From the sequence record OP557969.1: a stretch of DNA of 64,000 bases. One strand, 5' to 3'. The translations under genes and the position numbers were made by a program. Source of the DNA: Escherichia phage ph0011. The notes below the pieces were generated by a model that saw only the letters and a program-made list of their open reading frames with translations, did not search any database and had not been told where the DNA came from. Each line of letters begins with the position of its first letter. Position 1 is the stretch's first letter. Shown here piece by piece: positions 1 to 64,000 of the stretch.

Positions 1-51
1 AAAGTACACATACAGAGAAGTACTAAAACTTATCTCTATATAAGGTAATAT

Positions 52-240
52 ATGAACAATTTTGAGTACTACTTCAATAAACTAAATTCCATAGAACAAA
101 ATATGCACAAAACATATATTAAGTACTATCAATCATCTGCATCTGGAATTAAAAATATATCAATAAAGATTATCACTAACCGTGTACTGACACCTGAACG
201 TGATATGTATATTGATGTACTGAAACTCATCTCTGTGTAA
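52..240 (+). CDS. small hypothetical protein, divergent FamA-like
   Basis: 62-aa ORF; N-terminus MNNFEYY resembles the downstream KEYYT mini-protein array. Confidence 0.4.
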   Translation: MNNFEYYFNKLNSIEQNMHKTYIKYYQSSASGIKNISIKIITNRVLTPERDMYIDVLKLISV

Positions 241-250
241 GGAATAAACT

Positions 251-430
251 ATGAACAATTTCTATATAGAACACATAAACATTAAAGACCGTTTCATGTA
301 CGACACCTTCGTGAAGTACTACAACCTCGCAACTAACAGTACTAAAAATATTAATCTCAATAGCTGCATACACCAAGCACTAACAAAAGATAATCCCTTC
401 AGGGAAATCCTCGCTCTCGCATCTGTATAA
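251..430 (+). CDS. small hypothetical protein (about 59 aa), FamA-like N-terminus
   Basis: ATG shortly after upstream stop; N-terminus MNNFYIEH; below ORF-track length cutoff; coordinates hand-read. Confidence 0.35.
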   Translation: MNNFYIEHINIKDRFMYDTFVKYYNLATNSTKNINLNSCIHQALTKDNPFREILALASV

Positions 431-441
431 AGGAATCTAAT

Positions 442-1104
442 ATGAAACTTAATCAACACAGCAAACAATACCTTAAGCACTTTAAATACCTCAACAGTAT
501 TCAAGCAGAATCAGTTACATCATCTTATACGTATCACCCGAATATACTAAAGAAACGAAATAAAAAGAAAAAATCCAGAAATGTTCTCGTATCTAAGAAC
601 CTCAAATCGTACTTGAAGAAAAATAATATAGCTCTTGCTTTTATTAGTATCTATAATACTGATTTAAAAGTATTGAGTACTAATACCAGCACAAAAGCAC
701 TAAAGAATGCATCTATCTATATACACATTGATAATATCCCGTGCACTATAATTCTATCTTTCGGGAATGTATACTTCTTCGGGAATTGTAATAGCACCCA
801 TGATATCAGTACTGCACAATTCCAAATCGGAGATATGTACTGCATGGGTTCAGAAAAAATACACGATAACATGCACTTCTTCCAAAAGCAACGTACTAAC
901 GAAACTGATACAGTACTGCAATTCCTCAAAGAACTAGAACACAAAGAATTATCCGACGAAGAAGAATTCATGTACAGTACTGTAATCGATAATCCAGGAC
1001 TCTATAAAAACGCGTACAAACTAACAAAACATGTCCAGGAACTTATCAGTACTGATAAGAAATTTCATCACCTCATTACGTATATAACCTCTACAATGTC
1101 CTAA
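442..1104 (+). CDS. hypothetical protein (220 aa)
   Basis: Long ORF; RBS-like AAGGAA upstream; no recognisable domain. Confidence 0.5.
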   Translation: MKLNQHSKQYLKHFKYLNSIQAESVTSSYTYHPNILKKRNKKKKSRNVLVSKNLKSYLKKNNIALAFISIYNTDLKVLSTNTSTKALKNASIYIHIDNIPCTIILSFGNVYFFGNCNSTHDISTAQFQIGDMYCMGSEKIHDNMHFFQKQRTNETDTVLQFLKELEHKELSDEEEFMYSTVIDNPGLYKNAYKLTKHVQELISTDKKFHHLITYITSTMS

Positions 1105-1125
1105 CTCTAATATATAGATACTAAT

Positions 1126-1317
1126 ATGAAAAATCAATACAAAGAACTATACACAAAATATTTCCCCCAGTACCTGATCGAACACCTGGAACATACCAGA
1201 AACTTAAACACTAAAATTAATAAAGCAAGATTCATTATGTGCACTAAATCAGTAATAGATACTACCAACTATAATAGCGTACTATATCACATCCTGTACC
1301 TAACATTCGTGTACTAA
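1126..1317 (+). CDS. FamA mini-protein
   Basis: N-term KELYTKYFP, central MCTK, C-term LTFVY; tandem array. Confidence 0.55.
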   Translation: MKNQYKELYTKYFPQYLIEHLEHTRNLNTKINKARFIMCTKSVIDTTNYNSVLYHILYLTFVY

Positions 1318-1327
1318 AGAGAACAAT

Positions 1328-1510
1328 ATGCATAAAGAATACTACACAAATAAACTCCCTATGCATCTACAACACCTTATACCAATAAAACCTATTGGCA
1401 TAAAAGATCATGAAAAAATAATGTTCCAACAATGTACTAAGTACACCCTAATAGACGATGACAATCCATATATGCTGTACTATATAATAATGCTAACATT
1501 CAGGTACTAA
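1328..1510 (+). CDS. FamA mini-protein
   Basis: N-term MHKEYYT, C-term LTFRY. Confidence 0.55.
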   Translation: MHKEYYTNKLPMHLQHLIPIKPIGIKDHEKIMFQQCTKYTLIDDDNPYMLYYIIMLTFRY

Positions 1511-1511
1511 T

Positions 1512-1700
1512 ATGAATAACCACAAAGAATACTACACACAATTCCTCCCCAGCATTTTTGAACACTACGCCAGATATAAAGTCCCTCTGGATAACGAGTT
1601 GGCAGTACTCGGATTCAATAACTGCATAGAACGAAGTATAGAAAATAGTAGTACATATGACCAATTGTTTAACACTATCCTACTTATATTCAGGTACTAA
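1512..1700 (+). CDS. FamA mini-protein
   Basis: N-term HKEYYTQF, C-term LIFRY; 1-nt spacer to upstream stop. Confidence 0.55.
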   Translation: MNNHKEYYTQFLPSIFEHYARYKVPLDNELAVLGFNNCIERSIENSSTYDQLFNTILLIFRY

Positions 1701-1701
1701 T

Positions 1702-1890
1702 ATGCATAAAGAATACTACACAAAAGATTTTCCAATGTACCTCAAAACTAATCTATTAGATAAACCCCGCAACATCAATGCTCAAAACGATAAAGTGTAC
1801 TTTACTATGTGCACTAAAGCATGTATACTAGATTTTGATAGCTATCATCGAGTACTGTATCATACCCTGTACCTAGCTTTCGTGTACTAA
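1702..1890 (+). CDS. FamA mini-protein
   Basis: Start moved to internal MHKEYYT (track ORF 1657 reads through upstream gene); C-term LAFVY. Confidence 0.55.
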   Translation: MHKEYYTKDFPMYLKTNLLDKPRNINAQNDKVYFTMCTKACILDFDSYHRVLYHTLYLAFVY

Positions 1891-1900
1891 AGAGGCCAAT

Positions 1901-2107
1901 ATGAACGAACAGAAAGAATTTTACACCAAACACCTCAGTACATCAGAACAAATGTTTCTAAGGAGTGTATCACCTTTACGTTTAGATACACCACACGCCA
2001 GAGATTGCTTTAATAATTGTATACGTATTACTCTAGAAGCTTTAGAAAACAATAACAAAAATATTCAGTACTCAGGCGTAATGGGACTAATATTCTTCTA
2101 TGAATAA
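1901..2107 (+). CDS. FamA mini-protein
   Basis: N-term KEFYTKHLS..EQMF, C-term IFFYE. Confidence 0.55.
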   Translation: MNEQKEFYTKHLSTSEQMFLRSVSPLRLDTPHARDCFNNCIRITLEALENNNKNIQYSGVMGLIFFYE

Positions 2108-2288
2108 CAAAGAATTCTACTTAAACCATCTGGAACTAAACTCCCAAATGCTTATACCACTAAAACCAATAGATATCAAGGATAAGAAAAATACCAAACA
2201 ATTCCACTACCACACACTATGTGCTATCAACCCAGATTATAATACATATAAATTGTTCTACATCATCACCCTAATACTCAGGTACTAA
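2100..2288 (+). CDS. FamA mini-protein
   Basis: N-term NKEFYLNHL, C-term LILRY; overlaps upstream stop. Confidence 0.5.
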   Translation: MNNKEFYLNHLELNSQMLIPLKPIDIKDKKNTKQFHYHTLCAINPDYNTYKLFYIITLILRY

Positions 2289-2289
2289 T

Positions 2290-2475
2290 ATGCACAAAGA
2301 ATACTACACACAATTCGTTAAAGAAAACTACAAACACGCCGTACACATAAAACCATTAAATTCTAATGACCCAAATACCATATTCTTGTTTAAGGACGCA
2401 ACACGTACAGTACTCAATACTAAAGATGAACAGGTGCAGTACGTATTCTTACTATTACTTATATACAGACACTAA
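2290..2475 (+). CDS. FamA mini-protein
   Basis: N-term MHKEYYTQF, C-term LIYRH. Confidence 0.55.
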   Translation: MHKEYYTQFVKENYKHAVHIKPLNSNDPNTIFLFKDATRTVLNTKDEQVQYVFLLLLIYRH

Positions 2476-2480
2476 CTAAT

Positions 2481-2690
2481 ATGAATACAGAACATAAAGA
2501 ATTCTATTCCAAACACCTCAGCCCCTCAGAACAAATGTTTATAAGATCTACACCACCATTAAGTACTGATACATATTTCGGCAGAGTATGCTACAATAAA
2601 TGTGTACAAATGACTTTAAACGCAAACGACAATAATAACAGTACTAACATGTACTCAGGTATAATAGGTATACTATTTCTATATGATTAA
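2481..2690 (+). CDS. FamA mini-protein
   Basis: N-term EHKEFYSKHLSPSEQMF, close paralog of 1901..2107. Confidence 0.55.
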   Translation: MNTEHKEFYSKHLSPSEQMFIRSTPPLSTDTYFGRVCYNKCVQMTLNANDNNNSTNMYSGIIGILFLYD

Positions 2691-2865
2691 AGAACATAAA
2701 GACTTCTACATAAGAAAACTAACATTCGTCCCCGTAAAAATATACAAAGAATGCGACCCAAGATTATACCTGTGGCACTTCAATGAGTGCATAAAAGATT
2801 CTATATACCCTAAGAACTACAAAGAACAATTGTGCTCAGTACTAACACTAGTACTATCATATTAA
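2683..2865 (+). CDS. FamA mini-protein
   Basis: N-term KEHKDFY, C-term LVLSY; overlaps upstream stop. Confidence 0.5.
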   Translation: MIKEHKDFYIRKLTFVPVKIYKECDPRLYLWHFNECIKDSIYPKNYKEQLCSVLTLVLSY

Positions 2866-2878
2866 TAGAGATAATACT

Positions 2879-3082
2879 ATGAATAAAGAACATAAAAACT
2901 TCTATATAAGTAAACTAAAAGAAAATGAACAAGCATGGATTAGAACTATAATAATACTTCCATTTAATAGATACGCACTGAATAGATGTACACAGATTGC
3001 TATAGACCCTTATCCCATTGAAGAGGATGTACAGTACAATCAATACTACTATATCTTAATGCTTATATATAGACCTATATAG
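2879..3082 (+). CDS. FamA mini-protein
   Basis: N-term KEHKNFYISKL, C-term LIYRPI; RBS GAGA upstream. Confidence 0.55.
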   Translation: MNKEHKNFYISKLKENEQAWIRTIIILPFNRYALNRCTQIAIDPYPIEEDVQYNQYYYILMLIYRPI

Positions 3083-3098
3083 GAAATTACACAGGCGA

Positions 3099-3148
3099 AT
3101 TGTTAAAATTCAGCCTGCCATACGTCTGTATTGTTAAAATTCAGCCTG
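3099..3148. repeat. direct repeat ATTGTTAAAATTCAGCCTG x2
   Basis: Two 19-bp copies about 12 bp apart at start of non-coding hub. Confidence 0.6.
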
Positions 3149-3228
3149 GACAAATTCGATCACCAGGATTCTCTCCAGGCTAAACCACGTAACTCTACAG
3201 AGAAGCTATTAGCTTCTCTTTGTCATAT

Positions 3229-3460
3229 GTAGTCATAAGTAATCATATATAAACATTTAAGTAATCATTTATAATCACAGTAGTGAACAGTAGTGAGTAC
3301 TAGAGTACAGGAATGTGCACGTTTAATCAAGAACGTAGCAGTACTGATATGCCACTAAGTAGGCAGAGGAAGTCTGCCGTACTTTGTAGTTTCCAAGCTC
3401 CTTTTCCATTTTGCAAATTACATCAACTGTAATCAAAAGTAATCACATAATGATTAGTAC
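3229..3460. repeat. cluster of short direct repeats (GTAATCA about 5 copies, ACAGTAGTGA x2) and a GGCAGA/TCTGCC hairpin
   Basis: Seen by eye in non-coding sequence. Confidence 0.45.
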
Positions 3461-3489
3461 TGAATTATTACTTTCACCTTAATTTCAAT

Positions 3490-3560
3490 TACCCCTTTAC
3501 CCTTCGGGGTAAATGTATTTTTATCCATTTACCTTTGGGGTAAAATCCCATTACCCCTTG
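3490..3560 (+). other. cluster of consecutive short hairpins (TTACCC-TTCG-GGGTAA and variants)
   Basis: Three tandem GGGGTAA-containing inverted repeats, first with UUCG-type loop. Confidence 0.4.
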
Positions 3561-3744
3561 AGGCTCCAGCAAAAAGTTGGAAAGTACTCCATCGTAAATC
3601 TGGATCGTAAAAATTTTGGAGTACCTATGAAATAAAAGTTGGATCTTCGAAAGTTGAAATTTACGTTGGGACGTTTATGATTTGTGGGATATAATGAGTT
3701 TTGTAGCGATACAGTTTATACGATTTTAGAACTGCATAATGAAA

Positions 3745-3775
3745 GAAAGCTATTGACATTATGATTCAGTACTGT
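3745..3775 (+). promoter_or_regulatory. sigma70-type promoter with no ORF downstream
   Basis: TTGACA, about 16-bp spacer, TATAAT with TG upstream of -10. Confidence 0.5.
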
Positions 3776-4179
3776 ATAATGTTCTACATAGGGTGATGAC
3801 TTGCCGCAAACATTTCATTGACTCTACCTCCTGTCGTGAGACAGTACAGAAAAGATAGTTCCTCCTGTGGTGGTACATCTTTTTGAACCTCATGTAAAAA
3901 AACGTAATAACAGTACTGATATTAACAGAATGGTGTCAGTACTGACTTTAATCTAATACATTATGCCACCAGCACAAGCTGGTGGATTCCCTCTAACAGT
4001 ATTCAGTACTACATGATAGTCTTCATCCTCCTAGGGTAACATAGTGAGGGCTATTGTGGGAGTACTGAATACTCCTTTCAAAAGATAGAATAATGGTATA
4101 GTACCGACGGATTTTGGGCGTAGTTACCCTGGGTGGATTTTGGACGTAGATATGTCTAGCCCTCCAGAAGTCTGGAAGT

Positions 4180-4300
4180 AAAGATGGCTATCTATCTAGA
4201 CGGCTAAACGGCTAGATTTCTAGATGGCTGTATGGCTAGACGTTTGGATGGCTAAACGGCTAGATGGTTACACGTCTGGAAGTATAGACGGCTAAATCAA
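4180..4300. repeat. iteron-like array of GGCTA(GA) repeats
   Basis: At least 8 GGCTA copies at about 8-12 bp spacing, flanked by two GTCTGGAAGTA copies. Confidence 0.6.
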
Positions 4301-4634
4301 AATTTTTATTTTGTTTTTCCAATAGTTCCCCTACCGCGTGAGGATATTTTTCCCCGCAGTATCTGGAGTTAGATTTTTCTGAATCTGGAATCATTATCTA
4401 ATAAACTGGGGGCAATGTCAACCGCCTGGATGAATATTTTTAAAAAAATAATCTAGTACTGAATTTTGGGCGTAACTATGCACCCGGTGGGCTTGAGTCT
4501 TTCTCGACTTGATGGAACTATTATACAGTACTGAAAAAATAAAGCAATACCCTGGAAGCAAAAAAATTTTAATTAATTTGCTTGCTATTCTGGGCCGTAC
4601 TATGGTACTATTAATTCAGTACTGAGAAAGTGCT

Positions 4635-4722
4635 TTTACCTGCTAGGGTGCGGGAGTGTATCCTTTTTAAATTTTATGAATTTTGGGCAGATCTCCGCAC
4701 CCTGTGGGTTAGTGCCTTGTGT
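4635..4722. repeat. inverted pair of GGGTGCG-core element (AGGGTGCGGGAG ... CTCCGCACCCT)
   Basis: Arms about 45 bp apart; same core recurs at about 6530, 13520, 17240, 20520 and 23260. Confidence 0.5.
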
Positions 4723-4992
4723 CCGGCTTATGTAGTAATTATACGCTTTTTCAGTACTGAGTCAATACCTAAAAACAAAATAATTGAAAATAATTTAACG
4801 CGTTTAAACGGCCCGTAAAGCCCTGGAATGATTAGAATGGTGCAAATGTATAGCTTAGGTGTATTAATGCGTTAGAATGCGTCTGAGGCCGTTTTACGGG
4901 GTATAGGGATGATTTAGTGGATTGATTCAGTACTGAATAATAGTACTCCTATATAGAAAGAAAACTATTTTAAAAGTATTTGTAGAAAGTAC

Positions 4993-5051
4993 TTGCACCG
5001 TACTGATAAAAGCGTATAATGTTTTACATCGAGAGCGGGAACACTTCCCGC
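4993..5051 (+). promoter_or_regulatory. early promoter plus 5' leader hairpin cassette
   Basis: AGTACTTGCAC -35, TATAAT -10, GTTTTACAT, then GCGGGAA-cac-TTCCCGC hairpin, then RBS. Confidence 0.6.
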
Positions 5052-5075
5052 TACACATTAAGAGAGATTAAAACG

Positions 5076-5438
5076 ATGGCGACTCAAATCAATAAAATTA
5101 TTGCTAACCTGGTTAACTTCCGTGAAGAGATGAAAGGTCTTCCGGCTGAAACGGTAAAAATTCACATTTCAGCTTATCGGGAACTTATTGCAATGTTACC
5201 GCTTAAGCGTGAACAATACGCCGCTACCGTGATGCTTGATGCGATGATCAATAAGATGATCGCCAGTGATTTAACGATGGTTTATCAGTACATGGGCGAA
5301 AATTTCGCGGTGTCTGGTAAGCCAGTACCAGGGATGGCAACTACTGAGGAATTGCACGGTTTAAATTTAAAACAAGATGCATGGGATAATATGCCTCGTT
5401 TCCTGGTATGGGCTGACAGTGGCAAAATTTACAAATAA
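5076..5438 (+). CDS. hypothetical protein (120 aa)
   Basis: Start at MATQINK after hairpin and RBS AAGAGAG; track N-extension covers promoter. Confidence 0.65.
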   Translation: MATQINKIIANLVNFREEMKGLPAETVKIHISAYRELIAMLPLKREQYAATVMLDAMINKMIASDLTMVYQYMGENFAVSGKPVPGMATTEELHGLNLKQDAWDNMPRFLVWADSGKIYK

Positions 5439-5530
5439 GTTTAATAAAGTACTTGCATACTAAGTTAAAACAAGTATAATACTTTCTATCAGGTGGGGAA
5501 TAGTTCCCCACTATATAAGAGGATTAAAAA

Positions 5531-5770
5531 ATGGCTAAATCAAAAATGTTCTTAGGTCACAAAAACAAAACTCATTGGAATGTAAGCCTTTGGATTAATA
5601 ACGATGAATCATTATACCGGTTGGCCCTGGACTTTATTGCCGCCAATACTAATCGCAATGATGCGGCCCGTCATATGATGTTATTTTTAGAACAGACTGG
5701 ACAAGATAAAACACCGGACGGATTCAAATATAGCACTACTGCGATCCGTGCGGCGATGGTTGGAATGTAA
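5531..5770 (+). CDS. hypothetical protein, paralog of 7569..7808
   Basis: Shared GHKNKTHWNVSLWINN and TPDGFKYSTTAIRAAMVGM; own cassette. Confidence 0.7.
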   Translation: MAKSKMFLGHKNKTHWNVSLWINNDESLYRLALDFIAANTNRNDAARHMMLFLEQTGQDKTPDGFKYSTTAIRAAMVGM

Positions 5771-5860
5771 TAGAATAGAATTTATTTAAAGTACTATCAT
5801 TTTTTGCGATAGTACTTTATAATAGTGTTTTATTCATACACCAACGATAAGGGCAATAGC

Positions 5861-6127
5861 ATGAATATTAAGTATTTTGCGACGCGTGAACAAGCTCGGA
5901 AGGCGGCGAAAGTGGAAGGTGCAACGTTTAAAGATATGGGCATACAATCGGAACGTGGTAAACGTTGGGCCATTGTAAAGCGTAGTACAGCCAGATCATT
6001 ACAGTACTGGTTAGCGGCTTTAAAAAGTCCTGCTAGTGTATCGCGTCGAGTGGTAGAAATAAAGCTCGACCGTAAGGGGAATCGTGTTACCGTGTACCGT
6101 ACTAAAAAGATAGCAGTACTTGAATAA
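5861..6127 (+). CDS. hypothetical protein, paralog of 18547..18942
   Basis: Shared FYATRE..FKDMG..DRKGNRVTVY; start at MNIKY after RBS. Confidence 0.6.
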   Translation: MNIKYFATREQARKAAKVEGATFKDMGIQSERGKRWAIVKRSTARSLQYWLAALKSPASVSRRVVEIKLDRKGNRVTVYRTKKIAVLE

Positions 6128-6130
6128 AAA

Positions 6131-6195
6131 GTACTTGCAAACTATGCTTAAAAGCGTATAATACTTTATATCAGGGCGGGGGAATAGTTCCCGCC
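6131..6195 (+). promoter_or_regulatory. early promoter plus 5' leader hairpin cassette
   Basis: AGTACTTGCAA, TATAAT, GCGGGGGAA-tag-TTCCCGCC hairpin. Confidence 0.6.
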
Positions 6196-6214
6196 TATAA
6201 CCGGGAGTAATAAA

Positions 6215-6445
6215 ATGACTAATATGTATATGACTGAAGTTAAAACCGTAAAAGATACTACCACGAATAAAACTACTTACTTACAGCGGATCTGTGGTGT
6301 CTGGCAACGTATCAGCAAATCAAAGTACTTTAAATTAACATCATATGCCAATCGTTCGGATTCATTCAGTACTGAAATAAAAGGTAATAAAGTACACCAA
6401 TACGGCACTTATTATTATTATAGCCTGGACGCGATTGCAGTATAA
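6215..6445 (+). CDS. hypothetical protein (76 aa)
   Basis: ATG directly after hairpin and AGGAGT RBS. Confidence 0.6.
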   Translation: MTNMYMTEVKTVKDTTTNKTTYLQRICGVWQRISKSKYFKLTSYANRSDSFSTEIKGNKVHQYGTYYYYSLDAIAV

Positions 6446-6730
6446 GTAGTTTACAAATCTTTACAATTGCCGGTATTGACTTAAAATGTCAGTACTGGCA
6501 TAATGTATTCATTGGCAGATAAGCCGTGGCCCATAGGGTGCGGAAGTGTATCTATAGAAAAATTAGTTTAGTACAGTTACAATTGTGCACCCTGTGGGTT
6601 AGCTGTTGTCATGGGGTATATTATGCCAGTACTTGATAATGCTGTCAATACTTTTTTACTATTCAGTACTGAAAACTATTTGATAAAAAGTACTTGCAAA
6701 CTATGTTTAAAGGCGTATAATGTTTTACAT

Positions 6731-6803
6731 CAGGACGGGGAACGAAATAAGTAACTTCCCGTTAAGTAGCCCAGGAGTAAGGCATACGAAAAACTCCCCT
6801 GAT
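6731..6803 (+). other. structured about 75-nt leader element (copy 1), candidate small RNA or regulatory leader
   Basis: Starts at promoter +1 (CAGGACGGGGAACG...ACTCCCCTGAT), followed by a second promoter; near-identical copy at 17354-17424. Confidence 0.45.
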
Positions 6804-6871
6804 AAAATAGTTTGACAATTGTTTTTAAAAGCGTATAATACTTACATCAACTACTGAATGAGGGTTACAAA

Positions 6872-7483
6872 ATGAAAACTATCACTACTACTACTTATGT
6901 TATGGATTTTTCTGAATTGAACGCAGAACAAAAAACGTCAGCTATCGAACTGGTTCGGGAACGTGAAAAAAACTTAAACGACGATTATTTTTCTGAAAGT
7001 GAAATTGAATACTATAAAGAAACAGTACTACCGGAATATGGCATTAATGACGCAGAAATACAATTCAGTGGTTTTTGGTCGCAAGGTGACGGTGCATCAA
7101 TTAGTACTGACCACGTTGACGCAGTGAAGTTTTTACGTAAGGTAAGAGCATTAACTAAGTATCGCTCAATCCGTCACCTGCTGAATGAAGATGATTTGGC
7201 GATGAGTGTAAAGCGTTCTCACTCCCGCTACTCACATGAGAACACTGTAAGCGGGTACATTGAATCGGCTTACACTGATTTAACCGCAAAACAAGAAACG
7301 TTAGTTAATGAGCTTGAGGAACTGCTCACTGATACTATTCGTGAATTGTCACGCAAGTTATACCGTGATTTAGAGAATGCATATGAGGATCAATTCACTA
7401 CTGAAAACATCGTATCACTGATTGAGGGTAACGAATATCAATTCAATGTTATTGATGGCGTAGTAGAATCAATTGCATATTAA
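6872..7483 (+). CDS. hypothetical protein (203 aa)
   Basis: ORF with RBS GAGGG; tandem promoters upstream; no confident family call. Confidence 0.65.
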   Translation: MKTITTTTYVMDFSELNAEQKTSAIELVREREKNLNDDYFSESEIEYYKETVLPEYGINDAEIQFSGFWSQGDGASISTDHVDAVKFLRKVRALTKYRSIRHLLNEDDLAMSVKRSHSRYSHENTVSGYIESAYTDLTAKQETLVNELEELLTDTIRELSRKLYRDLENAYEDQFTTENIVSLIEGNEYQFNVIDGVVESIAY

Positions 7484-7485
7484 AA

Positions 7486-7550
7486 AGTACTTGCAAACTA
7501 AGTTTAAAAGCGTATAATACTTTATATCGAGGCGGGGAATGGTTCCCCGC
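7486..7550 (+). promoter_or_regulatory. early promoter plus 5' leader hairpin cassette
   Basis: AGTACTTGCAA, TATAAT, GCGGGGAA-tgg-TTCCCCGC hairpin. Confidence 0.6.
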
Positions 7551-7568
7551 TCAAACGAGGATTTAAAA

Positions 7569-7808
7569 ATGGCTAGTACTAAAACTTACAACGGTCACAA
7601 AAACAAAACTCATTGGAATGTTTCCTTATGGATTAATAACGGTGAGTCATTGTATCGGCTTGCTCAAAGTTGCATCGCACAATGTAAAACTAAAGATATT
7701 GCGGCCCAATGTATGTACCGCAGATTAAAAGCCAACGGTACTACTACAACGCCGGACGGATTCAAGTATAGCACTACGGCGATCCGTGCTGCAATGGTTG
7801 GAATGTAA
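7569..7808 (+). CDS. hypothetical protein, paralog of 5531..5770
   Basis: Start at MASTKTYNGHKNKTHW after hairpin and RBS. Confidence 0.7.
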   Translation: MASTKTYNGHKNKTHWNVSLWINNGESLYRLAQSCIAQCKTKDIAAQCMYRRLKANGTTTTPDGFKYSTTAIRAAMVGM

Positions 7809-7864
7809 CATTCAGTACTGAATCAATGGCGGGTGTGGTTCCCGCCTTTACTGAGGATTATCTA

Positions 7865-8146
7865 ATGAGTAAAGTAATTAACTATACAGTACTAAGCAAG
7901 TCATTATCTATTAGCCAGTGCACCGATGGTTTTTGGCTGTACGATGAAACGCGTGGTATGAATTTAGCTATGCAGGAGAAAACTCCTGATGCGGCATATC
8001 TTAAAGCACTGGAATACTACCAGAAGCGTTTAACGGAAGTAGAAAACAATTATCAGAATCTCAAAGAGAAAGTAGATAATTTCGTTGGTCAATTCGTTGA
8101 CGATGACGAAGGGCACTACTGCGACCGTTGCGGATCTTACAGTTAA
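7865..8146 (+). CDS. hypothetical protein (93 aa), C-terminal CxxC
   Basis: Start at MSKVINY after GGCGGG..CCCGCC hairpin and RBS GAGGAT. Confidence 0.55.
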   Translation: MSKVINYTVLSKSLSISQCTDGFWLYDETRGMNLAMQEKTPDAAYLKALEYYQKRLTEVENNYQNLKEKVDNFVGQFVDDDEGHYCDRCGSYS

Positions 8147-8163
8147 GTACTAAGGATTATATA

Positions 8164-8367
8164 ATGAGTGATTTAATTGAACGTATCAAAGAGCTTGAAG
8201 AAAAAGAATTACAGCTAATCGGCTTACAGAATAAAATCTATCATGATTTGGGGAGTTTTATCAATGCTTGGGATAGTGGCGATCCTGATGCGTTACCTGC
8301 TAACCGCCAGGCAATGATCAATGATGTGCGTGGTGTCTTTGAGTATGTTTTAAAGCAATTAAATTAA
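8164..8367 (+). CDS. hypothetical protein (67 aa)
   Basis: Start at MSDLIER after RBS TAAGGA. Confidence 0.55.
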   Translation: MSDLIERIKELEEKELQLIGLQNKIYHDLGSFINAWDSGDPDALPANRQAMINDVRGVFEYVLKQLN

Positions 8368-8370
8368 AAA

Positions 8371-8436
8371 AGTACTTGCAATTAGTTTTTAGTACTGTAT
8401 AATGTTTTACATAGAGGGGAGAAAATGGTTCTCCCT
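8371..8436 (+). promoter_or_regulatory. early promoter plus 5' leader hairpin cassette
   Basis: AGTACTTGCAA, AGTACTGTATAAT, GGGGAGAAA-atg-GTTCTCCC hairpin. Confidence 0.6.
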
Positions 8437-8454
8437 AGTAAAGAGGAAAATAAA

Positions 8455-8676
8455 ATGGCTAATATTACTACTCTTTCCCAACTTGAAGCACTGGTTAAAT
8501 CTATGCGGGAACATGCCGACAAAATCGGCGTAAAAGATCCAGCCGTTTGCTTTTGTGACGAATTGAATGATGATACATTGGTAATAGCAGAAGTCCAGGA
8601 CGTTTCTAACTATTCATCGCGTTACACTGGCGGCGTAGCAAATAAAGGTGACTTCTGTTTATACCTTACCAAATAA
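8455..8676 (+). CDS. hypothetical protein (73 aa)
   Basis: Start at MANITTL after hairpin and RBS AAGAGGAAA. Confidence 0.65.
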   Translation: MANITTLSQLEALVKSMREHADKIGVKDPAVCFCDELNDDTLVIAEVQDVSNYSSRYTGGVANKGDFCLYLTK

Positions 8677-8840
8677 CAACGCGGGGAGATAATAACTCCC
8701 CGTTACTTTTTCAGTACTGAATCATTTAATAGACGGATCTATGCACCCGGTGGGTTAGTGACTGTTTCGTCTTGATGTAGTAATTATGCCAGTACTGGAT
8801 GCGGTTGTCAAGAACTATTTTTCAAATACTTTTTACTAAA

Positions 8841-8906
8841 GTACTTGCTAATAGTTTTTAAACGCGTATAATGTTTTACATAGCAAGGGGAAACGGTTTC
8901 CCCTGG
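8841..8906 (+). promoter_or_regulatory. early promoter plus 5' leader hairpin cassette
   Basis: AGTACTTGCTA, TATAAT, GGGGAAAC-g-GTTTCCCC hairpin. Confidence 0.6.
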
Positions 8907-8924
8907 TAACTAAGGAATAAGAAA

Positions 8925-9161
8925 ATGATCGAACAAATCAAATCAACGTCTGCGAATGTAACGGGAACGGTATCACACTTTACTAGTGATGAATCGCGGG
9001 GCGTACCCTATTGTGCTGTACATGTAAACACTGAGGGTAACTACTGGTTTACGGTTTACGGATCATATTCATTTGGACGGCCAGGGCATCAAAAAATTCT
9101 GGATAAAGTACAGCCAACGGGTAAAAATATCACTGCTGAAATGTTTTATAAAAAATCATAA
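8925..9161 (+). CDS. hypothetical protein (78 aa)
   Basis: ATG after hairpin and RBS TAAGGA. Confidence 0.65.
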   Translation: MIEQIKSTSANVTGTVSHFTSDESRGVPYCAVHVNTEGNYWFTVYGSYSFGRPGHQKILDKVQPTGKNITAEMFYKKS

Positions 9162-9162
9162 A

Positions 9163-9228
9163 GTACTTGATAATAGTTTTTAGTATTGTATAATATTTTA
9201 CATCGCAAGGGGGAGCGGTTCCCCCTGG
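9163..9228 (+). promoter_or_regulatory. early promoter plus 5' leader hairpin cassette
   Basis: AGTACTTGATA, TGTATAAT, GGGGGAGC-GGTTCCCCC hairpin. Confidence 0.55.
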
Positions 9229-9245
9229 TAACTAAGGATAATAAA

Positions 9246-9545
9246 ATGAAAATTGCAATCATCGCCCTGGCTTTATCTGTTTCCTCTTTCGCTGTTAATG
9301 CGTCATTAGATGTAAGTAGTGAAAAATTCATTCAGTGCACTGTTGCAATGACCGATGAAAGAACTGGCGAGATTGTATTAAAGGATTTAGAGATCCAGCC
9401 GGAAGCATTTAAAAACGGCCCGTTCCATGAAGAAGACGAAAACGGTAGTACAACAATTTATTATGATGCTAGTACTAAACGCGGTTCGGTCACGGTTATG
9501 GATACTGAGAAAGTAACTCATACAGGCGTTATTAATTGCCGTTGA
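9246..9545 (+). CDS. small secreted or periplasmic protein (99 aa) with Sec-type signal peptide
   Basis: N-terminus MKIAIIALALSVSSFAVNA with AxA-like cleavage site; two Cys in mature part. Confidence 0.6.
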   Translation: MKIAIIALALSVSSFAVNASLDVSSEKFIQCTVAMTDERTGEIVLKDLEIQPEAFKNGPFHEEDENGSTTIYYDASTKRGSVTVMDTEKVTHTGVINCR

Positions 9546-9566
9546 TTGATACTACGGGGTAACATC

Positions 9567-9797
9567 ATGACTAAGCGAATAGTTTTACTTAACGCTGGAA
9601 GTACTACACAACTCCTTAACGCCGTGCATTATGATATTGAAACGAGCGTCAATCTTATCAGTACTGTAGTATTGTTGGACACTGGAAAGGTCGCAAATGA
9701 TAAAGCGATTGCAGGTATACTAACGGATCTTAAACCAGGTTGCAGTACTCCAATAACTTTAAATGATAAAGTGTTTAATATTTTACTAACTGATTAA
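9567..9797 (+). CDS. hypothetical protein (76 aa)
   Basis: ATG 22 nt after upstream stop; weak RBS; intrinsic terminator follows. Confidence 0.45.
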   Translation: MTKRIVLLNAGSTTQLLNAVHYDIETSVNLISTVVLLDTGKVANDKAIAGILTDLKPGCSTPITLNDKVFNILLTD

Positions 9798-9803
9798 GTA
9801 CAT

Positions 9804-9830
9804 AGCCCACCAGGTGGGCTTTTTTGTTTT
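9804..9830 (+). terminator. rho-independent terminator
   Basis: AGCCCACC/GGTGGGCT stem then TTTTTTGTTTTT. Confidence 0.75.
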
Positions 9831-9872
9831 TGTAGTATTGTAGTACTGAGATACTTTGAAAATAGTTTTAAA

Positions 9873-9915
9873 AAAGTAGTTGACATTACCGCAAAAAGGC
9901 GTAGAATGTATTACA
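9873..9915 (+). promoter_or_regulatory. sigma70-type promoter followed by long structured leader
   Basis: TTGACA, 17-bp spacer, TAGAAT; about 100-nt leader related to the 6731 element. Confidence 0.5.
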
Positions 9916-10030
9916 TCAAGACGGGGAGCACTAAGTAGACCGCCAGTAAGTCGAACGAAAAACTGGACACGTCGAGAAAACTTTGATACACTAATAAACG
10001 TAAACTAAACTTTAATTGAGGATTTATAAA

Positions 10031-10513: not shown

Positions 10514-10534
10514 CAATTAAAGTACTGAATCACT

Positions 10535-10568
10535 AGCCCACTTCTTATAGTGGGCTTTTTTGTGTTTA
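10535..10568 (+). terminator. rho-independent terminator
   Basis: AGCCCAC/GTGGGCT stem then TTTTTTGTGTTT. Confidence 0.7.
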
Positions 10569-10788
10569 TCGTTTACCAGTCCACTAGCACCGCCTAGAGT
10601 CGATTCTAACGCATTAAACTGATTATCTGATGAATAGCCCTAGCTGGTGGCGTTAATGCCGTTAGAACGCGATTGAGGACGTTTAAAGTATTTTGCAAAA
10701 AGTAATAAAAAGTACTTGCACGATTAAGAGATTAGAGTATAATTAATTACATCAAGACAAGACACCTTAACTAACTGAGGATATAAAG

Positions 10789-11470: not shown

Positions 11471-11482
11471 AAATATTATCAC

Positions 11483-13458: not shown

Positions 13459-13459
13459 A

Positions 13460-61189: not shown

Positions 61190-61218
61190 GGTGACAGCAG
61201 AATATGTTGTCACCTTTT
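61190..61218 (+). terminator. rho-independent terminator
   Basis: GGTGACAG ... TGTCACC stem then TTTTTT. Confidence 0.7.
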
Positions 61219-61762
61219 TTAATCCTGAAAGGTTCCTTTAAAGGAAACGTTTAAAACCTAATCCACTCGAAAATGTAGAGGGTAGATGAGTAGTCCTTTC
61301 AGTACGAACAGCAGATGAAACCCGTTAGATGATGGCATAGTTTGAACCACTCACGGCAATGCGGCTGTATAAAGAACTCCAATAGGATAAAGAGAGTTCC
61401 TCGATAGACATATAAGGATCGCACCTTACCAATTATCTAAGGGAGATTTCATGAGAAATATGCGGTCGGAATTATACAATATAGTTGCGTCCAAATTTTG
61501 TGAAATCAAATACAAGTACTGGTCATATGGTATTTGTATTATGTGTTGGGATGTTTAAGACCAACGACCGTTGCTACAAGAACCGCGATAGAGAGAAACC
61601 GAGCAACCCGCTTTCGTCTCGTATGAGAATTCGTGATATGAACTATGTGAAGACCACCAGCGTCAAATTTTTTTGTTCTTTCCCCTGCGGGGGGATGAAA
61701 TATGCTCAAACAAACCTCGTCAATATTAATTAAAAGAATTATTATTACTTGTAGAATTTGAC

Positions 61763-62386
61763 ATGCGTAGCATGGATAATTCTACTGGTGTTGATGTAAT
61801 CAACATCACGTATATATTCATTGAAGTTTCCACAGGAATAATGATGGCATTTATTAAAAAACAAAAAACATTTACCTATAAGACTTTGGATTTTATTGAT
61901 TGCGAAAATCAAACACAGAATGAAGATAACTTTACTGGATTTGTTGTTATTAAAGAAAAAGGATGTATTTCGTATATCAAGGAATTACAAAATGGAATTG
62001 AAGTAACGTCGGTTAAATTACTTCCTACACAAAAGCCAACAATATCCAAAGCACAATATGGTAATTATTTTGAGGAAAGATATAGTAATAATTTAATAAG
62101 TGTTAAGGCTCATATTATAAAAGGAGAACTAGAAGGAGAATATAGAAAATTCAATCCACAAGGAAAATGTGTTTGGGTTAAATACTTCAATTCAGGAAAT
62201 GATGTAACATCTGAAATAATTGAGTTTTTAGGTTTAACATGTACCCCTGAAACTCTTCATGACTACAAATTTAATGCTGAAGAAGAGTTTAATCTGATGA
62301 TGCGTTATGGAACACATTTTAAATTTTTATATGAATATAACATTGACAGTGGTGTTTTTGATAGGATAGTACAAAACTGTCTTTAA
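61763..62386 (+). CDS. hypothetical protein (207 aa)
   Basis: Long ORF after promoter-like TTGACA; no clear RBS; no confident family. Confidence 0.45.
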   Translation: MRSMDNSTGVDVINITYIFIEVSTGIMMAFIKKQKTFTYKTLDFIDCENQTQNEDNFTGFVVIKEKGCISYIKELQNGIEVTSVKLLPTQKPTISKAQYGNYFEERYSNNLISVKAHIIKGELEGEYRKFNPQGKCVWVKYFNSGNDVTSEIIEFLGLTCTPETLHDYKFNAEEEFNLMMRYGTHFKFLYEYNIDSGVFDRIVQNCL

Positions 62387-62402
62387 CAAAAGGATTTATA
62401 AC

Positions 62403-62927
62403 ATGTCGAAGAAGGATACTTCGAAGAAAAAGCAATCAGTACATTTCAGTACTGGAAAAGATAACTGGACAACTCCAAAGGATTTCTTTGAAGAGTTGGA
62501 TGAGTTATGGGGATTCACACTTGATGCTGCTTGTGTTGATGAGACGGCATTATGTGAAAATTATTTTACACCAAATGACGATTCTCTATCACAGGATTGG
62601 GGAAAGAATATAGTTTGGTTAAACCCGCCATATAGTGATTTGAAAACATGGTTATCTAAAGCAGTAGATGCGTATAATAAAGGAGCAACAGTCGTAATTC
62701 TAGTTCCATCACGAACTGATACAATAGCCTTCCATGAATATGCTGCAAAAGTTTGTGATTGTATTTGTTTCATTAAAGGAAGATTACGATTTGGTATCCC
62801 AGAAGAACCAGAGAAGAAGACAGATTCAGCACCATTTCCTTCATGTCTTATAGTTCTTGATAATTACTTAACTACTGCTAAAATAAATTATCTTAAATCT
62901 ATTGGGTTGGTAATGAAGAAACTATGA
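62403..62927 (+). CDS. phage Dam-type DNA N6-adenine methyltransferase
   Basis: N-terminal W-x-TP...F..L......FTLDAA and catalytic NPPY motif, as in phage Dam-family MTases; RBS AAAGGA. Confidence 0.75.
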   Translation: MSKKDTSKKKQSVHFSTGKDNWTTPKDFFEELDELWGFTLDAACVDETALCENYFTPNDDSLSQDWGKNIVWLNPPYSDLKTWLSKAVDAYNKGATVVILVPSRTDTIAFHEYAAKVCDCICFIKGRLRFGIPEEPEKKTDSAPFPSCLIVLDNYLTTAKINYLKSIGLVMKKL

Positions 62928-63457
62928 AAGAAACATGTATTTTATCATTTATGAGATGTAACCCTGTACATAATGGACATGGTTTAGTTTTTGAAAAGGC
63001 CAAAACATTACAAGAACAGTACAATGCTGATTTGAAAATATATCTAAGTACCAGTACTGACAATATAAAAAACCAACTCCCACCTGAACTAAAAATGTAT
63101 TATACAGAGGGATTTTATCCTTCAGTACAAGAGAACATCTACACCGAAGACAATCTATTTGATATAATGAGAGAACTGGATGGAAAATACTTAGATGTAT
63201 TTTTCATATGTGGTTCAGACCGTATTGAATCTTTTCAGAAAACTCTTGACAGTTACAATGGGAAATTATATAATTTTTGTAATATAAAAGCAATTCAAGC
63301 AGGTATTGATCGCCAATCAAGTCAATATAGTTCAACACAAATGCGTAACTTCGCAAAAAATGAAGATTTTGATAATTTTCGAGAATTTTTACCAGGTAAT
63401 GATGAGGACTTAAAAATTCAATTATTTGAAGATGTTATCAAATACATGAGGAAATAA
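62924..63457 (+). CDS. HxGH-motif nucleotidyltransferase (NMNAT/NadD- or PPAT-like)
   Basis: N-terminal CNPVHNGH (H-x-G-H) and later SSTQMR (ISSTxxR-like); ATGA overlap with MTase. Confidence 0.6.
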   Translation: MKETCILSFMRCNPVHNGHGLVFEKAKTLQEQYNADLKIYLSTSTDNIKNQLPPELKMYYTEGFYPSVQENIYTEDNLFDIMRELDGKYLDVFFICGSDRIESFQKTLDSYNGKLYNFCNIKAIQAGIDRQSSQYSSTQMRNFAKNEDFDNFREFLPGNDEDLKIQLFEDVIKYMRK

Positions 63458-63459
63458 CT

Positions 63460-63753
63460 ATGACAGTACTGTTCAAAACTAATCCAGTTCTTTGGGAACA
63501 AAATGAGCAAGCAGGATTCCGTTCTATCCATGTTGAATACAAGGGTAACACGGTAGTTGCAATTATTGCTAATAAAACTTTAGGAAAATGGACTGCACAA
63601 GTTGTTCCTATGGGATATTCTTATACATCTGATGAGGTAGAATTTTTGGCTGATCTTTATCGTCAAATGCCTTTTATCATTAATGTTCTAGAACAAAGTG
63701 ATACATTAACACATGAAGATGTAATCAACTTTCTTGGAAACTTACATGTGTGA
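63460..63753 (+). CDS. hypothetical protein (97 aa)
   Basis: ORF 2 nt after upstream stop. Confidence 0.5.
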   Translation: MTVLFKTNPVLWEQNEQAGFRSIHVEYKGNTVVAIIANKTLGKWTAQVVPMGYSYTSDEVEFLADLYRQMPFIINVLEQSDTLTHEDVINFLGNLHV

Positions 63754-64000
63754 TGTGATTAATCTTACTGGATATTTTTTACAAGAATCAATGATTAAAT
63801 TTAGTGAACACTTTCCAGTACTGGATGGTATAGAAATGTGGCATGTTAAGCCACTTTTCAACTCTTTCAGTAAAGAGCACAAAATGTTATTGACAGAAGC
63901 GAGTAAATCTAATAACATATGTGAAATCAAGATTGGTGTGAATGTCTATAAAGGGTTGGTAATCTTTTTTGACAATAACAGCAATTATTTTTATATTGTT
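63746..64000 (+). CDS. hypothetical protein, 3'-truncated by window end
   Basis: ATG overlapping upstream stop; open frame to window end (MCDVINLTGYF...). Confidence 0.4.
   Translation, partial: MCDVINLTGYFLQESMIKFSEHFPVLDGIEMWHVKPLFNSFSKEHKMLLTEASKSNNICEIKIGVNVYKGLVIFFDNNSNYFYIV

Follow-up and report, generated by a model that had tools for sequence, protein, structure and literature searches.

HIP1 (GCGATCGC), which typifies the highly iterated palindromes of cyanobacteria, is over-represented 15-300-fold, is found both in and between genes, and is conserved (PMC5861425, PMC4390886). Proposals for the function of HIP1 range from methylase-linked repair to nucleoid structure (PMC5861425, PMC4390886), and for palindromes of this class a periodicity over long distances, of 10-90 kb, has been described (Xu et al. 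2018). On our analysis these palindromes are the closest known kind to the one described here, the palindromic hexamer AGTACT in a stretch of 64,000 nucleotides from Escherichia phage ph0011 (sequence record OP557969.1), the whole of which is hereafter called the window. What is new here is an iterated palindrome in a virus, accompanied by a domain of a polar variant.

The uptake sequences of Neisseriaceae and Pasteurellaceae (DUS and USS) occur genome-wide with a frequency close to one per kb, influence the use of codons and peptides, and mark DNA as 'self' for the machine that handles it. The protein KorB of plasmid RK2 acts at palindromic operators placed at variable positions relative to promoters; these number about a dozen, and none lies in coding sequence. 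An earlier note on the window had tallied AGTACT by hand, concluded that the site is under selection, and offered as candidate functions a site for a regulator of all early promoters, a methyltransferase target, or a packaging or recombination signal. We used counts against null models, comparative genomics and domain searches to investigate the extent of the excess and the nature of the force behind it. The results point to a sequence-specific force that acts on the DNA of a whole group of jumbo phages, and we tentatively attribute it to a putative reader of the word.

An order-of-magnitude excess of AGTACT

AGTACT is present in 248 copies in the window, an approximately 12-fold excess, and 60 of these copies take the form CAGTACTG. 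It ranks first in over-representation among all 4096 hexamers. With 21.4 copies expected from base composition alone and 19.3 +/- 4.2 (maximum 33) in dinucleotide shuffles of the window, the excess is stronger than the order of tenfold at which the earlier note had put it (248 copies against 19-21 expected). Simulated Markov models gave the following expectations:

Order 1: 19.0 +/- 5.1 copies
Order 2: 44.9 +/- 6.7 copies
Order 3: 97.3 +/- 9.7 copies (maximum 121)
Order 4: 205.8 +/- 12.6 copies (maximum 234)
Order 3, fitted with the sites deleted: 28.7 +/- 6.2 copies

The high-order expectations are inflated because sub-words of AGTACT feed the model, and the observed count is still higher. 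With the 166 + strand open reading frames (ORFs) taken as the gene model of the window, 163 copies lie in coding sequence, 3.4 times the 48.5 +/- 5.9 (maximum 69) expected when synonymous codons are shuffled within genes; codon-order shuffling gave 20.6 +/- 4.4. The codon-preserving and Markov-order-3 statistics that the earlier note had named as the check on its claim thus leave the excess in place (48.5 expected in coding sequence and 97.3 in the window), and the sites that it had seen inside coding regions are spread over the three reading frames (63, 41 and 56). Composition, dinucleotide content, Markov order 1-4, codon order and synonymous codon choice were each considered as a source, and none accounts for the count.

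The preference at the immediate flanks of the word is symmetric: of the 248 sites, 110 have C at -1 and 117 have G at +1, with G at -1 and C at +1 found 19 times each. No information is left past +/-1, the signal being 6-8 bp only; hence, the sites are not pieces of a longer repeat. Paralogous families or repeats were rejected as a source of the word, as the flanks are uninformative past +/-1 and the sites occupy non-homologous positions in all frames; this source is also contradicted by a tandem array of genes for proteins of ~70 amino acids (aa), which is poor in sites. Thus, the excess is not a by-product of composition, codon usage or paralogous gene families.

The window has a G+C content of 33.9% and matches the Asteriusvirus jumbo coliphages BF17, EC22.5-2, 121Q, PBECO4, G17 and fEgEco12 at 87-92% identity. 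The genome ends of fEgEco12 have been fixed by PhageTerm and restriction digests (PMC13070987); position 1 of both fEgEco12 and BF17 aligns at window position 3358, and the direct terminal repeat of fEgEco12, 20,993 bp in length, ends by alignment at about window 24,689. Nearly all window genes are carried by the + strand. The resulting layout is as follows:

1-3357: right unique genome end (from alignment to the fEgEco12 termini)
3358-24,689: equivalent of the terminal repeat, with small early genes; the densest AGTACT zone (from alignment to fEgEco12 and BF17)
24,690-64,000: left unique region (from alignment to the end of the fEgEco12 repeat)
3083-5018: noncoding stretch of 1.9 kb containing the genome terminus (3358), with 16 AGTACT, mostly as cAGTACTga

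AGTACT density in the first three of these regions is 6.0, 6.3 (134 sites) and 2.4 per kb, respectively, and intergenic density reaches 11 per kb in 1-24.5 kb. The high density that the earlier note had reported for bases 1-3000 is real, and its tally of about 15 there is to be replaced by the exact count of 18; a similar density elsewhere, as it had supposed, is found only up to 24.7 kb (6.0-6.3 per kb), after which the figure is 2.4 per kb.

Pressure on the DNA itself

For genome-scale counts, 350 kb of the relative EC22.5-2 were assembled. AGTACT occurs there 913 times against 119 expected, and CAGTACTG 202 times against 3.4 expected; 69 of the 70 5-kb bins exceed the expected 1.7 AGTACT. 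About 750 of the ~900 sites per genome fall within genes. To express the strength of the pressure, we counted permissive positions, i.e. peptide positions able to encode the word without a change of protein, and took the fraction of them so encoded. This fraction is 47% in EC22.5-2 outside the island described below, and 65% within the terminal repeat of the window (3358-24,689). It is raised in every frame:

Ser-Thr as AGTACT: 52% (68% in the repeat), against 15.6% expected from codon usage
[K/Q/E]-Tyr-[codon starting with T] as AGTACT: 33% (55% in the repeat), against ~6% expected
x-Val-Leu as AGTACT: 37% (75% in the repeat), against ~9% expected

The proteins themselves are skewed toward the word, with ST dipeptides at 1.44 times expectation against 0.98 for TS, VL at 1.37 against 0.95 for LV, and QY at 1.48 against 1.05 for YQ. 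Per 10-kb bin, the fraction used is 0.27-0.66 outside the repeat and 0.60-0.73 inside it, and it is independent of both gene length (0.41-0.44) and gene strand (0.41 versus 0.43). Early, middle and late genes experience almost the same pressure; as the fraction used is nearly constant, the lower density of sites in late genes reflects fewer opportunities and not a weaker pressure. In the metagene profile, which is otherwise almost without relief, minor peaks stand 25-75 bp ahead of start codons and immediately past stop codons.

Of the 230 sites that align between the window and EC22.5-2, which are 87% identical, 190 (82.6%) have stayed intact, compared with 58-67% for hexamers in their flanks at +/-8 to 18 and 54.5% for all hexamers. 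This conservation holds separately for coding (77.7% versus 51.5%) and noncoding sequence (91.5% versus 68.9%). The products that deamination of the word would yield, AGTATT (53 copies) and AATACT (54 copies), stand at 1.2-1.3 times expectation and are thus not depleted; they account for only 4 of the ~40 lost sites, and one-mismatch neighbours of AGTACT in the window are not depleted either. As the deamination products are neither depleted nor the main states of lost sites, a Vsr-type drive, or 5-methylcytosine (m5C) at AGTACT, was rejected as the source of the word. These observations establish that a sequence-specific force acts on duplex DNA, site by site and everywhere in the genome. Uniform pressure, use of all frames and conservation do not by themselves separate selection from a strong conversion drive.

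Distribution across jumbo phages

We extended the counts to sampled regions of six related phages, and AGTACT is the top hexamer, as it also is in EC22.5-2, with a 6-14-fold excess, in the samples of all four genera to which these belong (Asteriusvirus, Mimasvirus, Eneladusvirus and Alcyoneusvirus):

BF17 (Asteriusvirus): 206 observed, 16.7 expected
CBB (Mimasvirus): 182 observed, 13.4 expected
GAP32 (Mimasvirus): 97 observed, 13.4 expected
XbC2 (Mimasvirus): 99 observed, 8.1 expected
fHe-Yen9-04 (Eneladusvirus): 53 observed, 8.3 expected
RaK2 (Alcyoneusvirus): 73 observed, 8.3 expected

A further Asteriusvirus, A4, for which a bin profile is the sole measure, has 5-12 AGTACT per 2.5-kb bin and no GCGC. 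There is no enrichment in the more distantly related phages PA5oct (2 observed versus 8.5 expected), XacN1 (0 versus 5.9) and Atu_ph07 (1 versus 8.4), nor in the controls, T4 (8 versus 10) and a 50-kb sample of Escherichia coli K-12 (3 versus 11.6, or ~0.06 per kb).

The AGTACT-rich phages lack the tetramer GCGC, which has no copy in the window, none in the 350 kb of EC22.5-2 (292 expected) and none in any of the regions sampled from the four genera. PA5oct (47), XacN1 (48), Atu_ph07 (37) and T4 (29) contain it, and E. coli has 342 copies per 50 kb (~6.8 per kb). Among six-base palindromes, no fewer than 16 are missing altogether from the window, including GGATCC, CTGCAG, GTCGAC, GGTACC, CGTACG and AGCGCT. 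Since other palindromes are purged, the AGTACT excess does not reflect a tolerance of palindromes; these phages avoid restriction-type sites generally, and one enriched palindrome stands out. Decay of CpG, which would turn AGCGCT into AGTACT and GCGC into GTAC, was rejected as a source of the excess in EC22.5-2, as ~30 AGCGCT would be expected against an excess of ~800, and ACGT is at its expected level. Within the searchable open literature on these phages, subscription journals being outside its coverage, the AGTACT word, the AGTACA island described below and the total absence of GCGC go unmentioned, and that literature contains no ScaI or RsaI digest and no methylome of them.

The selection on the site that the earlier note had deduced from the excess therefore stands in so far as it means a sequence-specific force on DNA, for which frames, synonymous use, dipeptides, conservation and distribution over four genera all speak; the functions that it proposed are less well supported, as discussed below.

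One-sided variants in local islands

Two stretches of the left unique region depart from this pattern:

31300-38300, + strand: AGTACA island, with 33 AGTACA (sense strand), 6 AGTACT and 1 TGTACT
24690-28400, + strand: tandem array of genes for ~70-aa proteins just inside the repeat boundary, poor in AGTACT (7 copies)

In the window island, 58% of permissive positions carry AGTACA and 17% AGTACT. The corresponding island of EC22.5-2 (59-66 kb) has 40 sense-strand AGTACA against ~2.7 expected, and neither AGTACT nor TGTACT; the AGTACA copies fall in frames 0, 1 and 2 (17, 13 and 9), occupy non-homologous positions in a dozen genes, and show the flank preferences of AGTACT. The island of BF17 has 44 AGTACA and 6 AGTACT. 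Use of permissive positions in EC22.5-2 is as follows:

AGTACA: 44/65 in the island, 68% (18/20 for Ser-Thr); 13% in the rest of the genome
AGTACT: 0/37 in the island; 47% in the rest of the genome
TGTACT: 0/23 in the island

The AGTACA excess fades across 20 kb past the island. In two relatives, the tandem-array stretch lacks AGTACT and has TGTACT instead (in EC22.5-2, 0/16 permissive positions for AGTACT and 7/14 for TGTACT); depletion of AGTACT there is weak in the window (8/20 permissive positions), and the TGTACT stretch rests largely on homologous positions of tandem paralogues. The islands of these two relatives thus have opposite polarity and flank a normal zone of 3.5 kb. As the genes of the islands are all in one orientation, transcription does not set the polarity. 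Neither GC nor AT skew gives a sign of an origin between the islands, the skew following gene orientation. Across 60-85 kb of EC22.5-2 (window ~33-57 kb) AT skew is 0.02-0.05, compared with 0.12-0.17 in the terminal repeat, and GC skew rises up to 0.30, the genome maximum. The AGTACA island is absent from the sampled regions of CBB, XbC2, GAP32, RaK2, fHe-Yen9-04 and A4, and a search of IMG/VR with one island protein for a donor lineage returned no relatives. The islands reveal a force that is sequence-specific, local, able to exclude the symmetric word, and readable from one strand.

A putative recognition word for DNA handling

The explanation that we tentatively favour, without holding it to be established, is that AGTACT is a selected recognition word whose putative reader, probably a product of the phage, handles phage DNA along the entire genome and above all at its ends. 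The word would be maintained by selection in the DNA of RaK2-like enterobacterial jumbo phages and would act as DNA, not as RNA or peptide. We infer from its distribution that a protein or protein machine reads it, most likely one encoded by the phages and conserved in the clade. As the word appears to be wanted on both strands almost everywhere, it would take the self-complementary form (C)AGTACT(G), and a word of 6-8 bp would fit an enzyme-like, beta-ribbon-type or single-strand reader better than a helix-turn-helix dimer. The need for it would be greatest in the terminal repeat, i.e. at the ends of the linear genome. Occupied sites in the zone contacted by RNA polymerase might modulate early promoters as a secondary consequence or use. 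The net effect would be a tagging of phage DNA, with ~2.6-6 AGTACT per kb, against host DNA with ~0.06 per kb, and the transaction served may be protection, the loading or stopping of a DNA-processing enzyme, or DNA organization.

Several observations weigh against this explanation. A symmetric dimer gives no account of a 7-kb island that uses AGTACA and excludes AGTACT, and conservation of AGTACA within the island does not exceed background (58% versus 54.5%). With half of the permissive positions saturated, positional conservation argues less for selection than it does with rarer words, and a strong biased-repair drive could mimic it. Spacings up to 120 bp and nearest neighbours show no helical period or regularity; outside the repeat, nearest-neighbour distances are close to exponential (coefficient of variation 1.11), and a weak peak at 18-22 bp comes from two-site promoters. 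This unphased, Poisson-like spacing gives no sign of cooperative arrays. Pfam searches with 150 window ORFs recovered no recognizable DNA-binding domain for a reader of AGTACT, and the reader may also be a host factor common to Enterobacterales.

The islands, being awkward for a symmetric dimer, lend real weight to a strand-reading machine. AGTACT would then be a signal read on one strand by a travelling DNA enzyme, with the palindrome as the cheapest way of placing it on both strands; it might serve as a Chi-like stop or switch for a helicase-nuclease, as a primase start, or as the favoured cleavage site of the phage type II topoisomerase, with a 4-base stagger around GTAC. The clade encodes a T4-type primase/helicase, gp46/47 and topoisomerase II (PMC5259590), and the mean spacing of one site per 380 bp is about that of a processing unit. 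Such an enzyme would make sense of an island that uses one strand only and at higher saturation (AGTACA 44/65, TGTACT 0/23 and AGTACT 0/37), of the opposite polarity on either side of the normal 3.5-kb zone in two relatives, and of the strongest AGTACT enrichment at genome ends, where oriented true Chi also concentrates. It is at odds with spacing that is Poisson-like and not regular, with a GC skew that gives no sign of an origin between the islands, and with homology breakpoints that are not enriched at AGTACT; moreover, the stretch with TGTACT in relatives is weak in the window (8/20) and depends on positions that are homologous among tandem paralogues. Unlike AGTACT, the Chi sequences known so far are rich in G and asymmetric, and the primases known so far recognize 3 bases. 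We therefore consider a strand-read signal unlikely, though well worth keeping in view.

A further possibility, to which we give slightly less credence, joins the two extremes of the word statistics into a sequence barcode: AGTACT packed in and GCGC purged, with phage machinery that reads both and so separates phage from host DNA. RaK2-like phages, which are without T4-style base hypermodification, would on this hypothesis use words instead. A nuclease would destroy GCGC-bearing DNA, the AGTACT reader would protect phage DNA, recruit other factors to it or organize it, and one-sided variants such as AGTACA might set polarity in special domains.

Methylases as candidate readers

The earlier note had proposed as one candidate that AGTACT is the target of a Dam-type methyltransferase of the window:

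62403-62927, + strand: Dam-family adenine methyltransferase gene (PF05869, E = 7e-33; TIGR01712, 95.9 bits against a cut-off of 97.05)

Characterized members of PF05869/TIGR01712 are usually GATC enzymes. Homologues of the window gene occur in 2153 phage records, with 30-45% identity outside the clade, and within the clade it is also found in CBB, XbC2, A4 and fHe-Yen9-04; it has no relative with a solved structure. A motif scan of all EC22.5-2 ORFs recovered only two DNA methylases, the Dam-family enzyme and one C5 enzyme, in keeping with the two methylases reported for RaK2 and phAPEC6 (PMC3622015, PMC7247149). The C5 enzyme, encoded outside the window (286 aa; L008:7362-8222, EC22.5-2 307362-308222), has its best full-length similarity to the catalytic domains of mammalian DNMT3A/B/C (E = 3e-23), M.HaeIII and M.HhaI being less similar. 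CpG methylation of RaK2 DNA, and its resistance to Dam-sensitive enzymes, have been reported; the DNMT3-like C5 enzyme probably acts at CpG, which would fit the CpG methylation of RaK2. In this sequence analysis, no evidence was found that links either methylase to AGTACT. The conserved ORF upstream of the methylase (61763-62386) belongs to no family and has close homologues only. In EC22.5-2, an ORF of 261 aa (91669-92454) lies between the methylase and cytidylyltransferase genes, which abut in the window (62927/62924); its presence in one and absence from the other suggest a free-standing mobile gene.

On the hypothesis of a methylase-linked palindrome, AGTACT or its GTAC core would be the target of the phage Dam-family enzyme, and the word would either be kept as a functional methylated mark or be made by methylation-dependent mismatch repair of near-cognate words. 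There is a precedent in the cyanobacterial highly iterated palindromes, each of which is accompanied by its own methylase (PMC4390886), an enzyme specific for the palindrome or its core and encoded in the same genome (Elhai 2015). The Dam-family gene is found in the window, CBB, XbC2, A4 and fHe-Yen9-04, and the clade enzyme is sufficiently distant from outside homologues (30-45% identity) for its specificity to differ; AGTACA and TGTACT would be sites methylatable on one strand only, which would give the islands a meaning. This hypothesis has to contend with there being only two DNA methylases, with one of them DNMT3-like in a clade whose member RaK2 is CpG-methylated, AGTACT having no CpG, and with the other from a family that usually recognizes GATC, in agreement with the resistance of RaK2 DNA to Dam-sensitive enzymes. 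It must also explain why AGTATT and AATACT are neither depleted nor the main states of lost sites, and we regard it as doubtful.

Early promoters and the terminal repeat

The terminal repeat is rich in sigma-70-like promoters, each followed by a stem-loop and a small gene. The strings that the earlier note had quoted, mostly from these promoters, are present in the window (AGTACTTGCA 19 times, AGTACTGTATAAT and TCAGTACTGAA 10 times each, and CAGTACTG 60 times). It had placed AGTACT in every early promoter, which overstates the case: 35 of 45 promoter-like sites in 1-25 kb have it within -80..+20, and several strong promoters lack it. Two places are preferred: 17 sites lie against the -10 element, within the spacer, and 9 overlap the upstream edge of the -35 element. 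The -35-overlapping form is aaaAGTACTTGCAa (19 copies of AGTACTTGCA), and the spacer form is AGTACTgTATAAT (10 copies) or AGTACTggCATAAT (4 copies); other promoter copies lie just upstream of -35 (AGTACTaTTGACA), are fused to it (TTGACAGTACT), or are found ~30 bp further upstream (tcAGTACTgaaaactatttt). In two-site promoters the centres of the sites are 20-21 bp apart, i.e. two helical turns. Examples are:

8371-8403, + strand: two-site early promoter AGTACTTGCAattagtttttAGTACTgTATAAT, with one site overlapping the upstream edge of -35 and a spacer site against -10; centres 20 bp apart
12999-13031: the same two-site layout
11483-11518 and 14369-14404: related two-site promoter layouts
13562-13628, + strand: early promoter whose distal site, tgAGTACTgaaaactatttt, precedes the -35-overlapping AGTACTTGCA by 34 bp

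CBB and GAP32 show the same layout (aaAGTACTTTGACA...AGTACTTTATAAT in CBB, and aaAGTACTTGACT), so that promoter AGTACT stands at the same two positions in Asteriusvirus and Mimasvirus. A stem-loop lies 5-10 bp past the -10 element of early promoters and is conserved (e.g. caaggggagaatagttctcccc; intergenic regions of 5439-24000); promoter and stem-loop units recur between nearly all small genes of the repeat. One promoter type, gggattgactccggtcagtccctttgctattatat, has three copies and is conserved as far as CBB.

As a factor bound at these positions would compete with RNA polymerase, a role in the control of early promoters is plausible. It is a separate and distinctly improbable proposition that the word is an early-promoter operator only, with the sites in genes incidental. 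The frequency with which promoters carry it (35/45), the two preferred positions, the pairs 20-21 bp apart, the same architecture in CBB and GAP32, and the intergenic density of 11 per kb in the repeat are all as such an operator would have them. Nevertheless, AGTACT is not confined to a fixed promoter position: preferred offsets exist, and two thirds of the sites are in genes (163/248, 3.4 times the synonymous-shuffle expectation). The pressure is uniform in late and structural regions distant from early promoters, with a flat metagene profile, the promoter-free noncoding stretch 3083-5018 is as dense as the promoter regions, and several strong promoters have no AGTACT. Moreover, the promoter copies belong to paralogous cassettes and so do not count as independent instances of a shared offset. 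An early-promoter regulator, the first candidate of the earlier note, is thus not a full account, given that most AGTACT is in genes, the pressure is nearly uniform and a promoter-free stretch is equally dense.

The remaining proposals of that note concerned packaging and recombination. AGTACT is scattered genome-wide and is neither unique nor clustered at the terminase cut; two copies precede the terminus at 3358, by 18 and 62 bp, and similar sites are found everywhere in that region. Of homology breakpoints, 12-13% fall within 10 bp of AGTACT, a proportion not significantly above the 9% of the null. Neither result supports a packaging or recombination signal, although the word may still have a role at DNA ends, given its enrichment in the terminal repeat.

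Molecular drive and host nucleoid occlusion

About as improbable as an operator-only role is a functionless mutational or repair bias, i.e. molecular drive with no beneficial reader. Uniformity of the pressure over gene class, length and strand, Poisson-like placement, AGTACA island sites that are not conserved above background, and the highest saturation in a repeat that recombines every cycle would all be natural outcomes of such a bias. It predicts that a converting drive should deplete one-mismatch neighbours, which it has not done, and it sits poorly with conservation of AGTACT beyond that of its flanks and with a trait stable over four genera while other palindromes are purged. The bias would also have to be strong enough to change proteins, and would still need a sequence-specific enzyme.

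The Enterobacterales hosts of AGTACT-rich phages carry the nucleoid-occlusion protein SlmA. That the phage sites bind SlmA so as to block cell division is very improbable: AGTACT is indeed the central hexamer of the SlmA-binding sequence GTGAGTACTCAC (PMC3020112), but each half of the 12-bp site of SlmA must have G1, T2, A4 and G5 along with a purine at position 3 (PMC3020112), and we rejected the phage sites as such on finding C at position 3 in 45% and G in 8% of them, GAGTACTC absent from the window, and only 7 of 913 EC22.5-2 sites within 2 mismatches of the consensus.

Other features of the window

In the noncoding stretch around the terminus (3083-5018), gttaaaattcagcctg forms direct repeats, with two copies near 3100-3160; ggctaga/ggctaaa-type repeats follow one another at about 4100-4300, and there are several hairpins of the 'cccaccc/ggtggg' type. 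All of these may be signals for terminase or end processing. Chi (GCTGGTGG) has 9 + strand copies inside the terminal repeat against 0.2 expected. Chi-related positions are 3966-3985, 10643, 14898, 16030, 17278, 19627, 21519, 23098 and 23321; the copy at 3966 is inverted (CCACCAGC), stands back to back with a direct copy and is separated from the left terminus by 600 bp. This orientation fits a shielding of both genome ends from RecBCD. A megablast search with window 1-8000 matched 179 phage records, including Campylobacter phages, Vequintavirinae, Phapecoctavirus, Justusliebigvirus and Klebsiella phages, which suggests that some short element of this segment is common to phages far outside the genus.

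The DNA of the noncoding segment ~61290-61720, which lies ahead of the methylase operon, is conserved between genera, with 73-88% identity in Erwinia, Yersinia, Pectobacterium and Cronobacter phages and XbC2, where it is unannotated. An alignment of four sequences has 79 predicted pairs, 18 of them with compensatory double changes, along with invariant single-stranded blocks, and a search against Rfam gave no match even at E <= 1; we consider it a candidate for an unclassified structured RNA. The only families detected by the Pfam searches with the 150 window ORFs are Dam, a DksA/TraR zinc finger, a ParE-like toxin domain, a GNAT acetyltransferase and several domains of unknown function (DUFs), namely DUF7249 (twice), DUF7247, DUF7217 and DUF1033.

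Significance

Phages are known for avoiding short palindromes, and AGTACT near saturation is the reverse of this textbook pattern. It takes half of the synonymous opportunities, skews the proteome and has persisted while four genera diverged, which implies a sequence-specific activity at the centre of how a large group of jumbo phages lives. Phages of this group are under development for therapy against E. coli, Klebsiella, Cronobacter, Erwinia and Yersinia, and codon optimization or recoding of them may erase a functional signal. The word is also a simple metagenome marker for the clade. Finally, these phages offer a small and fast experimental system in which to address the purpose of highly iterated palindromes, a question that is about thirty years old in cyanobacteria, since their sites lend themselves to recoding and to transfer onto plasmids, with a readout inside a single infection cycle.

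Comparison with known systems

Among described words and sites, the uptake sequences differ from AGTACT in being 9-12 bases long, asymmetric and read by a competence receptor, whereas a lytic phage is without an uptake step. Chi (GCTGGTGG) and the KOPS motifs, which travelling enzymes read, are, like AGTACT, over-represented short words, and the AGTACA and TGTACT islands share their strand polarity; unlike them, AGTACT is self-complementary, is not G-rich and has no orientation bias outside the islands. The SlmA-binding sequence GTGAGTACTCAC has the same central hexamer, but its required flanks are absent or disfavoured in the phage. The target of ScaI and Eco255I is AGTACT itself, and two-fold symmetry over 6-8 bp is typical of type II enzymes; phages normally avoid such sites, whereas here the site is enriched about tenfold, and no cognate enzyme was found in the analysed sequences. 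AGTACT further resembles the KorB operators as a palindrome at several positions relative to many promoters. The recurrence of an early promoter with a stem-loop between small early genes likewise resembles the promoter and stem-loop cassettes (PeSL) of the hyperplastic regions of T4-type phages, although such cassettes account for the repetition of promoters and not for the word inside genes.

The comparison with HIP1 goes furthest. HIP1 is cellular and GC-rich, whereas AGTACT is found in a virus and is AT-rich with a GTAC core; the phage methylases point to GATC and CpG, with none matched to AGTACT; AGTACT has no periodicity over the short range examined; and it has a one-sided AGTACA domain as well as additional enrichment in the terminal repeat and at promoters. 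Both are short perfect palindromes of extreme abundance, CAGTACTG being 59-fold and AGTACT 8-12-fold in excess here, with about one copy per gene or more, found in all frames and between genes, lineage-wide, and conserved past background. AGTACT thus shares with HIP1 an order-of-magnitude excess, presence in all frames, and conservation, the last of which its high saturation weakens, and extends this kind of iterated palindrome to the DNA of jumbo phages.

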